Source of the DNA: Candidatus Atabeyarchaeum deiterrae
GTDB lineage: Archaea > Asgardarchaeota > Atabeyarchaeia > Atabeyarchaeales > Atabeyarchaeaceae
NCBI GenBank assembly: GCA_037310415.1
Contig: CP147780.1
Span: 2,272,001-2,336,000 of the forward strand
Direction: 5' to 3'
DNA length: 64,000 nucleotides
The notes beneath the pieces are model-generated. The model did no database searches and was not told the origin of the DNA. It saw only the letters and a list, made by a program, of their open reading frames with translations. The position numbers and the translations under genes are program-made. Position 1 is the stretch's first letter. Each line of letters begins with the position of its first letter. Below, piece after piece: positions 1,909 to 7,962 of the stretch.

Positions 1909-2053
1909 TCACTCTCAATCGTTTTTGAACATTAATACTCGCAGTCTATATAAGCTAGCGTTCTTCCAGCGTTAGTCAAGTATGATTCCTTGAAATCGTT
2001 GTTTTTCTCGTGTCTCGGACATGGTTTTCGATTCGGAGGAGTGACAGATAGCA

Positions 2054-2566
2054 ATGGTCGCCTTCAAGGTGGCATCGAACGAGGATATCCGCGCACTAGG
2101 TAGAAAACTTCTCCATCTTTTGGAGGATCATGAGAGCCAAGTCTACCAAGAGAACATTGTCAAATTCGGTATCCCCGACGATTACGTCAAGAAGGTTTTC
2201 GCTGAGGACACCCTTATCGAGGCGGCAAAATCGGGAAAAGCGGTCTTCTACCTAGTGCTTAGGAAACGAGAAATCGTGGGATTCGCCCAGACTCTGCAGC
2301 ATGACCCAACCACAGCGGAATTGGATCGAATAATCATATTCCCCGAGCAGACTCGAAAGGGCATAGGAACGCTGCTCCTACGACACGCGGCAGAAGATCA
2401 GAAGCGAAGAGGAATAGAGACCATGGTAGTGAATGCAGGAAAAGAAGAGTCTCACGCCAGAAGATTCTACGAGAAAAACGGCTTTCAGAAAGAAAAGGAA
2501 ACCACAATACAGACACCGTGGGGCGGCAAAATAGACTTGGTAACTTACAAACTTGATATCAGATAA
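2054..2566 (+). CDS. GNAT family N-acetyltransferase
   Basis: PEQTRKGIGTLLL acetyl-CoA motif; ARRFYEKNGF; GGAG SD upstream. Confidence 0.9.
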   Translation: MVAFKVASNEDIRALGRKLLHLLEDHESQVYQENIVKFGIPDDYVKKVFAEDTLIEAAKSGKAVFYLVLRKREIVGFAQTLQHDPTTAELDRIIIFPEQTRKGIGTLLLRHAAEDQKRRGIETMVVNAGKEESHARRFYEKNGFQKEKETTIQTPWGGKIDLVTYKLDIR

Positions 2567-2598
2567 GGAAACCTCAAACTGGAAATCTTATATATGAA

Positions 2599-2620
2599 GG
2601 TTCTGTTACCTCTGCGGTTG
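2599..2620 (+). repeat. Left terminal inverted repeat (22 bp)
   Basis: Exact reverse complement of 3869-3890. Confidence 0.95.
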
Positions 2621-2625
2621 GTGAG

Positions 2626-2633
2626 TTTAAATA
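2626..2633 (+). promoter_or_regulatory. TATA box of tnpB (probably leaderless transcript)
   Basis: TTTAAATA about 24 nt upstream of ATG 2657, just inside the left TIR. Confidence 0.6.
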
Positions 2634-2656
2634 AGAGTTTTAGTTTGTTTAGTTTT

Positions 2657-3883
2657 ATGCAGGCAGTTAAAACGGTGCAGATACCATACGAGCCTACAAA
2701 CGGTGTTCTCAGTCTCCTTGAAACTTTCAGGACCATGGTCAACTACTGCATCCGCGTCGGTCTCGAGAAGAATGTGACTTCCAGGCTCAGGCTGCAAAGC
2801 GAGACATATCACCAGCTAAGTGGCTTCGGTCTCCACACCTGGTACAGTCTCTCAGCCATCGAGGTTGCCACCGCCATCTTGAAGAACTACCGAAAAACGA
2901 AAAGAAAGCGAAAGATTGTTCGATTGCCGAGAGCCACGAAACTCACAGCTAAACTCGGAAACCAAGGCTACAAGATTGTTGATGGCAAACTGAGGATACC
3001 AATTAAGCCAAGAGAGTATTTCCACGTTCCCCTGCATAAGAGGGCGGCACGGTTCCTATCGGATGCCACGCTCAAGCTAGGCTCGGTGACCTTGACTGCT
3101 TGCACGGTTTCAGTGGTTTTCTCGAAGACCGCTGAGGTTACCGAACCCAAGAGCTACGTGGCGTACGACACGAATGAACGCTCAATAGATGGAGGATACG
3201 TGAAAGAAGGCGGAGAACTGATCGTTGAAAGCCACGATTTGTCAAATGTTTCAGAGATTAGGCACGGGTATTTTGAGCGGGTACGAAGAATTCAGAGAAA
3301 ATACGCGAAGGATAGGCGGGTGGCGAAAAAGATTCAGAGAAAATGGTTCACCAATCAGAACAACAAGGTCGACACAGTCCTGCATCAGGTGAGTTCAGCG
3401 ATAGTTGGACAAGCAAAAACCAGGGAACAAGGTATCATCCTCGAAGATCTTAAACATATTCGCAAGGCAGTTAACAGGAAAGCCTTAGGCGTCAACAACT
3501 TCAACGGGAAGATACAGAGAATCAGCACGCACACTAAGAAACTGAAGCGAAGGCTGAACTCATGGAGCTTCCACAAGCTGCAAGGCTTCATCGAGTATAA
3601 GGCTCTCTGGGAAGGAGTCAAAGTCATCAAAGCAAATCCGAGAAACACTTCTAGGGTCTGTGCGGTATGTGGGTGCGTGATGCGAGACCCGAAAGCGAGA
3701 ACCCTAGAATGCTGCGGGATAGATCGCCACGTAAACGCATGTTTGAACATGCTTAAAACCCAGGATGAAAGGGTGCGGTTCGCCCTGGATCGCTCCGCAC
3801 ATGTAGCCGTGATTAGTCCCTTCAACAAGGCTATGAGCCGAAGCGGAGAAGCTAACCCAAACGGTTATCAACCGCAGAGGTAA
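2657..3883 (+). CDS. tnpB: RNA-guided endonuclease TnpB family protein, RuvC-III Asp replaced by His
   Basis: RuvC-I AYDTNE, Ruv[40 protein letters not shown] Zn finger, [10 protein letters not shown]. Start moved from 2594 (outside the TIR) to 2657. Confidence 0.92.
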
Positions 3884-3910
3884 CAGAACCTATATGAATA
3901 CCTGCTAGAA
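3765..3910 (+). ncRNA. Putative omegaRNA scaffold plus flank-derived guide overlapping the tnpB 3' end
   Basis: Stems AGGGTG(3770-75)/CGCCCT(3781-86), CTCCGC(3793-98)/GCGGAG(3843-48), nested TAGCC(3804-08)/GGCTA(3829-33); position typical of TnpB omegaRNAs; ends approximate. Confidence 0.55.
3869..3890 (-). repeat. Right terminal inverted repeat (22 bp), contains the tnpB stop codon
   Basis: Exact reverse complement of 2599-2620; TAA 3881-3883 lies inside it. Confidence 0.95.
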
Positions 3911-3928
3911 ACCGAGCTGTGATTGATT

Positions 3929-4765
3929 ATGAAATTGAGTTGTTGCACGTTAGCGTATATTGTTAGTACGCCACTGGATGAAGCGATTAGAAGAATCGCT
4001 GAAGCTGGCTACAAAGGGGTAGACTTGTATACTGGTCCTCCACACCTTTACCCTGGGCATTATTCGTCTGACGAACGAGAAGTTGTGAGGAAGGTAGTTG
4101 ATGAAAACGGTCTTGAACTGACGGGCTTCGCAGTCGCCGGTGGAATTCTCAATCTGGGACTCAACTTTTCCCACCCTAACAAGAAAGTGAGAGACGAAAC
4201 GCTGCAATACTACAAAGACAACGTCAACCTTGCGGAAGAAATCGGTTGCCCCCTAATCAACGTCCTAACAGGTCATTGCCTGTATGGAACCTCAAGGGAA
4301 CAAGGCAGAAAATGGACCATGGACGCATTCCATGAGCTTACGGCGCTGGCGGAGGAAAAAGACGTGATTCTCGGTCTACATCCGCAGTACATCGGGGACA
4401 GCCCGCTCATGCTTACCGTTGATGATGCGCTCGACATGATCAAAGAGTTAAACTCGAAAGTCGTTAAAGTGATCTTCGATACTGCGCAGCAGAACATTAC
4501 CTACCCAAACTTTGCCGACGACATTAGGAAGGCAGGACAGAACCTCTGCTATGTTCACGCAGCCGATAACGATGGAATAAGCTGGACCCATCTCACCCTT
4601 GGAAAGGGGACGGTGAACTGGGAAGGACTAGTTAAGACACTCAATGCAATAGACTTCGATGGTTACATCTGTGTGCAGACTTGGTCGGGTTCACCTATCG
4701 ATGCTGACTCCGTGATACGCGAATCCAAGGAGTATATGGAAGGCATCTTCAAGAAAGTACGATAG
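3929..4765 (+). CDS. Sugar phosphate isomerase/epimerase (xylose isomerase-like TIM barrel)
   Basis: AEAGYKGVDL, KVIFDTAQ, YVHAADNDG, HLTLGKGTVNW motifs. Confidence 0.85.
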   Translation: MKLSCCTLAYIVSTPLDEAIRRIAEAGYKGVDLYTGPPHLYPGHYSSDEREVVRKVVDENGLELTGFAVAGGILNLGLNFSHPNKKVRDETLQYYKDNVNLAEEIGCPLINVLTGHCLYGTSREQGRKWTMDAFHELTALAEEKDVILGLHPQYIGDSPLMLTVDDALDMIKELNSKVVKVIFDTAQQNITYPNFADDIRKAGQNLCYVHAADNDGISWTHLTLGKGTVNWEGLVKTLNAIDFDGYICVQTWSGSPIDADSVIRESKEYMEGIFKKVR

Positions 4766-4974: not shown

Positions 4975-7962
4975 GTGAACAGAGCTACGAAAGTGACAGC
5001 CATAGCAATACTCACTATCATGCTCTTCTCAGCGATCCAAACAATACCACAATCACTAATGTTCCAACAAACAAGAAACCTAGGAAACAATCAACCAAAA
5101 GCGAATCGGGCACCCTCAACTCCACAATCAGAGTGGGTCTACCAGATAGGTAGCTGGATCAGATCATCACCCAAGGTTGCTGACGTCGACAATGATGGAA
5201 AAACCGAAATCGTCATGGGCTCGGCCGATCACTACATTTACTGCATTAACGGCACAGGGTACGTCGACTGGAGCTACTATTCGGCTATGGATTCCTACTC
5301 AAGTGCTGCATTCGCTGACGTTGACGCAGACGGTAAGCTGGAGACAATCATCGGTTCAGGCACCCGTATCTACTGTTTCAATGGCACAGGGAACATAGAT
5401 TGGTACTACGATGCTGGAGGCTACGTTAGCTACCCCGCCATCGCTGACATCAACGGGGATGGCAAGCAAGAAATCCTAATAGGGTCCGGTGATAAGTATC
5501 TCTACTGCCTAAATGGTACAGGTCAACTGAAGTGGAAGTACCTCACGGGGGGCGGCATCTATTGGTGCAGACCAGCCATCGACGACATTAATAATGATGG
5601 CAAGCAAGAAATCGTGTTTGGGTCGTCTGACGGCACAGTGTACTGCCTCAATGCGACTGGCCAGCAGAAATGGAACTTCAATACAGGGAGCTCTATTTAC
5701 GCTTCTCCAGCTATCGCCGACATAGTAGGAGACACGAATCTAGAAACAGTCATAGGCTCGTCAAACGGGCGACTTTACTGTCTGAATGCCTCGGGTCATC
5801 AGAAGTGGCAATCATCATATCTTGGCACCATCCAAGATGGCGCCGCCATTGCAGACATCGATGCGGATGGCAAGCCGGAGATAGTGATAGGCACAAACAA
5901 CAACAGGCTCTATTGTCTAAACGGGACAGGTAGTGAAGAGTGGGAGTACAATACGGTTGACATAGTGACAGCTGATCCTACAATTGGAGACGTTGATGGC
6001 GATGGCAAGCCAGAGGTAGTCATGGGATCATGGGCAGGCAAAATCTGTTGCCTGAACGGAACCGGCGCATATAAGTGGGGCTACCAGACAAACGGCAGAA
6101 TCGATACGTCCTCAGCCGCAATTGCCGAAGTTGACACAGATAGCAAGCCAGAGGTACTTGTCGGTTCGGGTGACGGCAAATTCTACTGTATTAGCTCTAC
6201 GGGCAACCTCAAGTGGACCTTCACTACTCGCGGAAGCATCGGCACCTCTTCACCATCAATTGCTGACATAAACGTGGATGGCAAACCGGAGATAGTTCTG
6301 AGTTCAAGGGATAACCTTAACGAATACTGCTTGAATGCGACAGGTCAAATGCAGTGGGCCTACTCGGCGGATTACTATTCCTACGCCACGTCCACTATCG
6401 CAGACATTGACAAGGACGGAGAACTAGAAGTGATAGTAGTTGCGGGCTCGAACATATATTGCCTTAACGGATCGGGAAGTGAGGAATGGATCAAGTATGC
6501 ATCGTCCGGCGGATTCGACCAGTGCTGCCCAGCGATGGCAGATATCAATGGAGACACACAATTGGAGATAATAGTTGGCTCATGGAGTGGGGCGATAGAA
6601 TGCTACAATGCAACAGGAGATCTAAAGTGGACCTACATGGCAGGGGGCGGCATCTACGGGTCTTCTCCCGCCATTGCCGATGTCGATCTAGACGGGAAAC
6701 TAGAGGTAATCGTGGGGTCAAACGACAACAAAGTCTACTGTCTTAACAGCACTGGATACGGGAAATGGAATTACACGACTGCGAGTTACATAAGCTCATC
6801 TCCAACAATTGCTGACGTAGACGAAGATATGAAGCCAGAGATCATAATAGGCTCAAATGACGGCAATATCTATTGTCTGAATGGTACTGGGTACAATGAG
6901 TGGGCCTGTCCAACTGCAGGTGGTGTCACATCATCTCCTATTGTCGCAGACTTCGACGGAGATGGAAAGCTGGAGATCATAGCGTGCTCAGTTGGCTACA
7001 TCTACTGTCTCAATGGAACTGGCAACGAGGAATGGCAGTATTACACCGGCATTTGGACTGATTCATCGCCAGCAATCGCAGACCTTGATGGTGACCATAA
7101 TCTCGAGTTGGTGGTTGGAGAAGGCTATGCCCTCACTTGCCTGAACGGAACAGGGGGATTGGAGTGGAACTTCGCGACTGGTCGTGAAGTTAGATCCTGC
7201 CCAGTTGTTGTAGACATAGACGGAGACACGCAATTGGAGGTAATATTCGGCGCAGATGATGGCAACGTCTATTGCCTCAGCATTGTTGGAGCTCCTCAGA
7301 ACCTTGATGCCTATCCTTGGCCGTCCATTGGCAAGAACGGCGACATGAGGCACAGTGGTTACTATGCTGACTCCGATGGTGACCGACTCAGCGACAACTA
7401 TGAACTCATTGTGGGAACTAGTCCGAATGATCCTGACACCGATCACGACACATCGACAGACTACGCTGAATTCGCTCAGTCCACAAATCCGCTCCTTGAC
7501 ACGGTTCCACCAGCAATAGTCCTTGACCTCGCTACGGGCAGCCCGACGACCGATCAGATCACCTTGGCTTGGACCGCTGCAGGCAACAATGGAATGAGCG
7601 GCAATGCCACGGGCTACGTATTGAAATACTCGACGATCGGCCCAATAAACGAGACGAACTGGGCTCTCGCAACAACTTACTCTCAACTTTGGACGCCGCT
7701 TCCACATGGCAACACTGAAACTCATGTAGTGTCAGGGCTGATGTCTGACACGACGTATTGGTTCGCAATCAAAGCACGCGATTCAATTCCAAACTTTGGC
7801 GGATGCTCCAACAGTCCAAGCGGAACGACTGCCACCATTACCGCGCCACCAGGTGGTGAGCCGAGCGGAGGACTCCCCATCGAACTGATAGCATTAGTAG
7901 GCATCGTTGCTGTGGCTGTGGTCATAGCAACCGTCGCTGTCGTAAAGATCAAAAAGAAGTAG
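4975..7962 (+). CDS. Secreted, membrane-anchored FG-GAP/PQQ-like beta-propeller repeat protein with Ca-binding repeats and Fn3 domain
   Basis: Signal peptide; 16 repeats W..SSPAIAD.DGDGK.E...YCLNGTG; DSDGDRLSDNYE/DTDHD..DYAE; Fn3-like ITLAWTA..TYWFAIKARD; C-terminal TM followed by KIKKK. Confidence 0.88.
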   Translation: MNRATKVTAIAILTIMLFSAIQTIPQSLMFQQTRNLGNNQPKANRAPSTPQSEWVYQIGSWIRSSPKVADVDNDGKTEIVMGSADHYIYCINGTGYVDWSYYSAMDSYSSAAFADVDADGKLETIIGSGTRIYCFNGTGNIDWYYDAGGYVSYPAIADINGDGKQEILIGSGDKYLYCLNGTGQLKWKYLTGGGIYWCRPAIDDINNDGKQEIVFGSSDGTVYCLNATGQQKWNFNTGSSIYASPAIADIVGDTNLETVIGSSNGRLYCLNASGHQKWQSSYLGTIQDGAAIADIDADGKPEIVIGTNNNRLYCLNGTGSEEWEYNTVDIVTADPTIGDVDGDGKPEVVMGSWAGKICCLNGTGAYKWGYQTNGRIDTSSAAIAEVDTDSKPEVLVGSGDGKFYCISSTGNLKWTFTTRGSIGTSSPSIADINVDGKPEIVLSSRDNLNEYCLNATGQMQWAYSADYYSYATSTIADIDKDGELEVIVVAGSNIYCLNGSGSEEWIKYASSGGFDQCCPAMADINGDTQLEIIVGSWSGAIECYNATGDLKWTYMAGGGIYGSSPAIADVDLDGKLEVIVGSNDNKVYCLNSTGYGKWNYTTASYISSSPTIADVDEDMKPEIIIGSNDGNIYCLNGTGYNEWACPTAGGVTSSPIVADFDGDGKLEIIACSVGYIYCLNGTGNEEWQYYTGIWTDSSPAIADLDGDHNLELVVGEGYALTCLNGTGGLEWNFATGREVRSCPVVVDIDGDTQLEVIFGADDGNVYCLSIVGAPQNLDAYPWPSIGKNGDMRHSGYYADSDGDRLSDNYELIVGTSPNDPDTDHDTSTDYAEFAQSTNPLLDTVPPAIVLDLATGSPTTDQITLAWTAAGNNGMSGNATGYVLKYSTIGPINETNWALATTYSQLWTPLPHGNTETHVVSGLMSDTTYWFAIKARDSIPNFGGCSNSPSGTTATITAPPGGEPSGGLPIELIALVGIVAVAVVIATVAVVKIKKK

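Follow-up and report, generated by a model that had tools for sequence, protein, structure and literature searches.

The window analysed here is a stretch of 64,000 nucleotides (G000:C1:2272001-2336000) from a genome of 2.76 Mb that consists of a single contig. Near its left end lies a non-autonomous element of 1292 bp (2599-3890), in which a terminal inverted repeat (TIR), a putative promoter, tnpB and a second TIR follow one another. The TIRs, GGTTCTGTTACCTCTGCGGTTG, are 22 bp long and perfect (2599-2620 on the + strand and 3869-3890 on the - strand, complementary at 22/22 positions by direct reading and repeat finding), and the only long open reading frame (ORF) between them encodes a TnpB-like protein. 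Beyond these two sites, no match to GGTTCTGTTACCTCTGCGGTTG with up to 3 mismatches was found across the 64 kb, and 100 shuffles gave 0 matches. The element is flanked by an 8-bp direct repeat, TATATGAA, which cannot be extended on either side. The stop codon of tnpB (TAA, 3881-3883) lies within the right TIR, so that the ORF ends 7 bp from the end of the element. The TIRs, the 8-bp repeat, the lack of any gene other than tnpB and the position of its stop codon had been reported in a preliminary description of the window, and every detail was confirmed. The features are as follows.

[quoted passage not shown]
2591-2598, no strand: left TSD copy, TATATGAA, present as a single copy at the empty site of a relative (G002)
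2599-2620, + strand: left TIR, GGTTCTGTTACCTCTGCGGTTG, 22 bp; its first 9 nt are the IS6/IS26 TIR consensus GGTTCTGTTGCAAA (PMC6807381)
2626-2633, + strand: putative TATA-like box TTTAAATA, 23 nt ahead of the start codon of tnpB, as read from the sequence
2657-3883, + strand: tnpB, 408 aa, RuvC D-E-D triad and Cys4 zinc finger intact (profile matches and family alignment)
3728-3890, + strand: omega-RNA-like scaffold, which shares sequence with the 3' end of tnpB and has the same last base as the element (covariance model R1 and covariation)
3869-3890, - strand: right TIR, identical to the left at 22/22 positions, holding the tnpB stop codon (direct reading and repeat finding)
3891-3898, no strand: right TSD copy, TATATGAA (direct reading and G002 empty site)
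3891-3910, + strand: predicted guide segment of the omega RNA, from read-through past the right end into TSD and flank (analogy with characterised TnpB systems)

Translation of tnpB is likely to start at ATG 2657 rather than at ATG 2594 of the ORF list, since homologues align from MQA onwards and the TATA-like TTTAAATA is located at 2626-2633. This box is probably an archaeal promoter, from which a near-leaderless tnpB mRNA would be made. Directly to the left of the insertion there is a gene for a 170-aa acetyltransferase-like protein (2054-2566) that has no DNA-level match in G002 (L007, G002:C104); at that locus about 226 bp separate the conserved flanks, and the last 20 bp or so before the target site are conserved. 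Further to the right, an ORF of 995 aa (4975-7962, + strand) contains many FG-GAP/VCBS-like repeats (recurring D-x-D-G-D-G-K-x-E) and a C-terminal hydrophobic anchor, and its product is probably a surface protein.

The TnpB protein of the window matches Pfam PF07282 with 54.9 bits (cut-off 26.3) and TIGR01766 with 61.5 bits (cut-off 32). Against NF040570 it scores 86.8, under the cut-off of 100, and a second copy in the same genome (L003) scores 115.5. In the family alignment, residues D171, E263, C335, C338, C352 and C353 are invariant, and the third acidic residue (DRH) is retained in 7 of the 8 rows. Judged by these matches and residues, the protein has the RuvC-like fold, D-E-D triad and Cys4 zinc finger by which, together with the family models, TnpB proteins are recognised.

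Two relatives, both Asgard archaea, were used for close comparison: Promethearchaeati archaeon SRVP18_Atabeyarchaeia-1 (G001) and isolate LC30 (G002). In LC30 the site is empty, with the left flank, a single TATATGGA and the right flank following one another uninterrupted. Because this empty site, a check that the preliminary description had proposed, holds one copy of the 8-mer and not both, the TATATGAA repeat is a true TSD. The perfect repeats had also been taken as the sign of a recent insertion, which stands in a relative sense only: contigs from two separate studies span both junctions (those of the second, independent study come from one run), and an empty allele, in the form of a contig that skips the element, was not seen in four metagenome/metatranscriptome runs compared with window 2000-4500, contigs being blind to rare variants. 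Many contigs lose their match at or near the element ends (2598-2604, 3891-3892) and continue into other flanks, so that the community must contain further copies. Only two short contigs came from the one RNA run, one of them belonging to a diverged copy, and they are uninformative on expression either way.

The element belongs to a widespread family. In G001 at least 7 places align with it over the exact TIR-to-TIR extent, at 81-86% identity, and the sister genomes contain at least 15 further copies, each with its own distinct 8-bp TSD. There is also a second element in the source genome (L003:302-1522), the TnpB of which is 40% identical to that of the window and the TSD of which is TGAGAAAC. 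The copies in G001 and G002 and the L003 element each have 22-bp TIRs, and their 8-bp TSDs are all different; several TSDs are perfect, and others match at 7/8 positions, in decayed, frameshifted copies. A scan for homologues with one genome per species added 79 loci (32-85% identity) from Bathyarchaeia, Thermoproteota, Nitrososphaeria and Asgard archaea. GGTTCTG-type TIRs together with a TSD of 7/8 or 8/8 were found at 34 of 81 loci, no two TSDs being alike, and in the TnpB tree these loci are scattered over the entire clade. The seven other TnpB genes of the source genome lie outside the clade on long branches, and inverted repeats were not found at any of the seven. No dated origin is claimed for the association, since the outgroup in this tree is small. 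Alongside the TIR-type elements, the genome carries one canonical IS605-type pair, a Y1 TnpA gene adjoining that for a 454-aa TnpB, one of these seven (G000:C1:1377345-1378863; L142, L146).

These data bear on the simplest alternative, that the element is an ordinary IS200/IS605 (IS1341-type) element moved by a Y1 TnpA, with TIRs and 8-mer due to chance or to RNA structure. A Y1 TnpA of this kind is present in the genome, as just described, and the right TIR does form part of an RNA helix (see below). The left TIR, however, lies outside the RNA, the TnpB genes outside the family have no TIRs, and IS200/IS605 elements make no TSD (PMC13565253), whereas dozens of independent copies of this family have different 8-bp TSDs and the empty site has one copy. 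The alternative is already refuted on this evidence, and we give it next to no weight. The same review agrees with the statement in the preliminary description that IS200/IS605 and IS607 elements have neither TIRs nor TSDs. The refuting case named there, close homologues with IS605-type ends, is not what was seen: close and distant homologues have the same TIRs and different 8-bp TSDs.

A structured RNA appears to be encoded in the 3' part of the element. The alignment behind model R1 is an unguided MAFFT alignment of the last 160 nt of 28 elements, from which the subfamily of the window was excluded and in which five rows are MITE copies. Three helices are present: a hairpin, a long-range stem, and a stem formed by an upstream GTTAAC-like segment with the inner right TIR. 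Compensatory double changes occur at 13 of the 18 pairs across the three helices. Pairing holds in 97% of cells and falls to 27-42% once the 3' strand is shifted by 1-3 columns; in 300 column shuffles the values of the real alignment were never attained. R1 matches window 3728-3890 (163 nt), a copy outside the training set, over its full length with 59.2 bits (E 4e-15). Genome-wide it detects 2 copies in G000, 25 in G001 and 6 in G002, every one of which ends at a TIR terminus; an Rfam scan of window 2400-4100 with E up to 1 returned no family. The covariation supports the view that the 163-nt 3' module is an omega-RNA-like scaffold whose last helix uses the inner right TIR. The predicted omega RNA would then lie at the 3' end of tnpB and end at the right end of the transposon, as is characteristic of TnpB systems.

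In G001 there are 257-bp MITEs that retain just the scaffold and the two TIRs (e.g., L030:2841-3097, with the perfect TSD TCATGTGA). Since MITEs keep the scaffold alone, its conservation is not due to the overlapping reading frame. In the same genome a 7.1-kb segment with four large ORFs (L024:2250-9352) is located between two inverted 257-bp MITE copies and lacks a matching TSD; this may be an arrangement akin to a composite transposon, or else the two MITEs may have inserted independently.

A candidate for the enzyme that moves these elements is encoded elsewhere in the source genome. The one full-length DDE_Tnp_IS240 gene (C1:1518285-1519469) lies on a unit of 6159 bp (G000:C1:1515170-1521328; L042:2171-8329) with the ends GGTTCTGTCAAGTCTTCGATTG and GGTTCTGTAAAGTCTTAGGTTG, nearly identical to those of the window element, and the perfect TSD TGGATTTC. 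The transposase has 394 aa and combines a SWIM zinc finger and a zinc ribbon with an IS240 DDE core. It matches PF13610 with 61.9 bits (cut-off 27). The cargo of the unit includes a ParB_N-like protein (446 aa) and a NOV_C protein. Several ORFs without any family are also present on it, and a third, internal end is found at L042:6471-6492, 22 bp past the transposase stop codon. The NCBIfam IS6 profile (NF033587) is covered in full, but the score of 118.3 bits falls slightly short of the required 125, and NCBIfam IS1 is matched more weakly than IS6, with 60 bits. Archaeal “IS6” elements are disputed as members of that family and may deserve a family of their own (PMC6807381).

Transposase-bearing units with such ends occur in other genomes as well. 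The units measure 3-7 kb, beyond short-range inverted-repeat searches, and their ends were located by pattern search. In G001, a 6.6-kb unit (L023:2277-8830) has a full-length transposase and the perfect TSD TGGAGAAC, and a 4.4-kb unit (L022:2150-6568) has both TIRs identical to those of the window at 22/22 positions and a transposase that is truncated at the N-terminus, the first 131 residues being missing. The cargo of the L023 unit is a 995-aa Eco57I/N6_Mtase (type IIG restriction-modification), i.e. a defence gene on the same ends. Transposase homologues with 56-62% identity are encoded in Nitrososphaera and Bathyarchaeia genomes that also carry TnpB elements, and ends of this type, with perfect 8-bp TSDs, bound two of the bathyarchaeal units (L126:582-3720 and L148:9862-14554). 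On the transposase-bearing units R1 gives only weak matches of 14-18 bits, mostly over the TIR, and no omega RNA is claimed there. At L148:7874-14554 and L126:582-3720, nearly the same 8-mer (CGCATTAG, CGCATCAG, CGCATAAT), followed by CAAA, is occupied both by transposase-bearing units and by the end of an adjacent element, which suggests a hotspot or a strongly preferred target.

That the window element is a non-autonomous transposon mobilised in trans by this archaeal IS6-like DDE transposase is strongly supported by comparison of the ends. The preliminary description had proposed such a hybrid, with TnpB travelling on DDE ends, and had pointed to the start of the TIR and the 8-bp TSD as typical of the IS6 family; the consensus GGTTCTGTTGCAAA and the 8-bp TSDs given in PMC6807381 agree with this. 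The shared ends, the TSDs and the empty site now favour the proposal, and the IS6-like transposase with matching ends, for which a search had been suggested, exists in G000 and its relatives as the SWIM and DDE_Tnp_IS240 enzyme with an 8-bp TSD of its own.

The ends might nevertheless be shared by common descent only, the element being of DDE type and dependent on another transposase, or on none today. One point against mobilisation by the SWIM-IS240 enzyme is that the only full-length transposase in G000 sits on a unit whose TIRs match those of the window at 17/22 positions, while in the unit with 22/22 identity the transposase is truncated. The weak match of the enzyme to NCBIfam IS1 also speaks for a different mover, and the low numbers in G000, two TnpB copies and a single transposase, give little indication that the family is active there now. 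On the other side, three TIR variants recur, each of which is common to a transposase-bearing unit and to non-autonomous elements; the TSD length is identical; transposase and TnpB elements co-occur in Asgard, Bathyarchaeia and Nitrososphaera genomes; and such ends were seen at no other DDE gene. We regard a different mover, or none, as improbable.

The target sites are asymmetric. Thirty-four independent empty sites were reconstructed and oriented by tnpB. Immediately 5' of the TSD, position -4 is Y in 28/34 sites, -3 is T in 27/34, -2 is T in 32/34 and -1 is R in 27/34, and no comparable signal was present in the TSD itself or in the right flank of these 34 sites. TT occurs at -3/-2 on the left in 26/34 sites, the mirror AA on the right in 5/34 (P about 1e-21), and the full YTTR is present in 15/34 against a local background of 0.018. 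YTTR or YTTG is also found beside three of the four transposase-bearing units that have no TnpB, at the flank that precedes the transposase gene.

If the guide starts immediately past the right TIR, then the position of (Y)TTR is where the TAM must lie. This one-sided motif at the expected TAM position is indirect evidence for candidate TAM-dependent, RNA-guided cleavage by the window TnpB. Because the motif also occurs beside units without TnpB, it may be an asymmetric preference of the transposase itself, with the TAM of TnpB matched to it much as in IS605. A guide consisting of the TIR itself, by which TnpB would cut the element's own ends, was also considered and dropped, the bases just inside the two TIRs having no common motif.

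The presence of the motif beside TnpB-less units could be taken further, to the view that TnpB is simply carried along, as cargo or as a passenger in decay, and contributes nothing to spread, and that the motif is purely a transposase target preference. Many copies in G001 are frameshifted, and IS6-type copy-in would leave no excised site for repair, both of which fit a passenger. Against it, the catalytic triad and the zinc finger are conserved across phyla, covariation in the scaffold is strong even over the coding overlap, MITEs keep exactly the scaffold, and the motif stands exactly where a TAM is required relative to the predicted guide. A passenger role is improbable, about as improbable as a mover other than the SWIM-IS240 enzyme.

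The explanation that we prefer, with a probability of roughly 85%, is that of an IS6-ended TnpB/omega-RNA element which is moved in trans and whose TnpB acts on the empty allele. The SWIM-IS240 transposase of the 6.2-kb cargo transposon in the same genome would move the window element, making 8-bp TSDs, and TnpB with its omega RNA would serve the element as in IS605-type systems. Transcription would cross the right TIR, so that the guide would consist of the duplicated 8-mer and the right flank, with (Y)TTR 5' of the TSD as the putative TAM. TnpB is then predicted to cut the unoccupied allele only, because AACC, not (Y)TTR, stands before the right junction, and because the guide has no more than 8 nt in common with the left junction. 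A cut empty allele would be converted to the occupied state. The TIR may thereby have a double role: it would be bound by the transposase and would also provide the guide-RNA scaffold with its 3' stem.

IS6/IS26 elements are known to transpose by copying in through cointegrates and not to excise. The benefit of TnpB has been explained in print by renewed cutting of the excised donor site, an argument which for this reason is not directly transferable to the present elements. A more far-reaching and tentative reading, which we consider possible but rather less likely than not to hold, is that nuclease and DDE transposase use one target code. The IS6-like transposase would insert asymmetrically by (Y)TTR, or homing by TnpB would filter insertions to such sites; each new insertion would yield a pair of TAM and guide, with the element's own TIR as the last stem of the guide RNA. 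If so, TnpB would drive a transposon that copies in and is never excised from one chromosome copy to another in polyploid archaea, and the omega-RNA-only MITEs would parasitise TnpB in trans.

The elements described here extend the range of TnpB-recruiting transposons to an IS6-like DDE family across archaea, the Asgard archaea included. They form a natural series on one set of ends, from the autonomous cargo transposon through the element with TnpB and omega RNA to the omega-RNA-only MITE. Since IS6-type elements are thought to copy in, the system allows a test of how TnpB benefits a transposon, by restoration of an excised donor or by conversion of empty alleles. The family also provides compact archaeal TnpBs whose predicted TAM is short, along with a 163-nt scaffold of defined extent that is open to direct testing.

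Compared with known systems, the window element resembles the IS1341 group in its size of about 1.3 kb, in having tnpB as its sole gene, and in a scaffold that takes in the 3' end of tnpB and goes as far as the right end. It differs from that group, which has hairpin ends, no TIRs, no TSD and a Y1 HUH TnpA, by its 22-bp TIRs and 8-bp TSD, and it is thus not an IS200/IS605 element. As in IS6/IS26 elements, the TIR begins with GGTTCTGTT, as in the consensus, with GG at the start and G at position 7, the TSD is 8 bp long, and the partner has a DDE_Tnp_IS240 core (PMC6807381). Unlike those elements, which encode a single DDE transposase of their own, the window element encodes TnpB only; its partner is a protein of about 390 aa with additional N-terminal SWIM and zinc-ribbon domains, located on cargo transposons of 3-7 kb, and the TIR consensus here reaches 22 bp. 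Fanzor, the eukaryotic TnpB, is likewise an RNA-guided nuclease that rides on DDE transposons with TIRs and TSDs and has its guide RNA running through the right TIR, but the present system is archaeal, has a compact and typical TnpB, and belongs to a different transposon superfamily.

The closest precedent is the work of Altae-Tran et al. (2023; PMC10691335), the main text of which describes six TnpB branches tied to DDE transposases, all with inverted terminal repeats, and solo TnpBs whose ends are nearly identical to those of transposase-bearing elements, implying mobilisation in trans. The window element is like these branches (DDE-1 to DDE-6) in that TnpB lies between TIRs, its 3' end is less than 250 bp from the transposon end (7 bp here), and the TIRs are common to a DDE-transposase-bearing element. 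DDE partners named there (section 9) and in a 2026 review (PMC13565253) are IS630, ISL2 and IS1031. An IS6-like partner for TnpB is not named in the literature searched, which for PMC10691335 means the main text, and the clade described here may be one of the branches left unnamed there. The “Aloposons” paper (PMC8813620) and that on mobile elements of Atabeyarchaeia (PMC11529989) mention neither TnpB nor these ends. As far as that main text goes, TnpB on DDE-type ends and solo copies moved in trans were thus already published in 2023 for other IS families. The same text does not include 8-bp TSDs, omega-RNA-only MITEs, the TIR as an RNA stem or the one-sided motif; the last three of these features, together with the IS6-like partner, appear to be new details of the present family.
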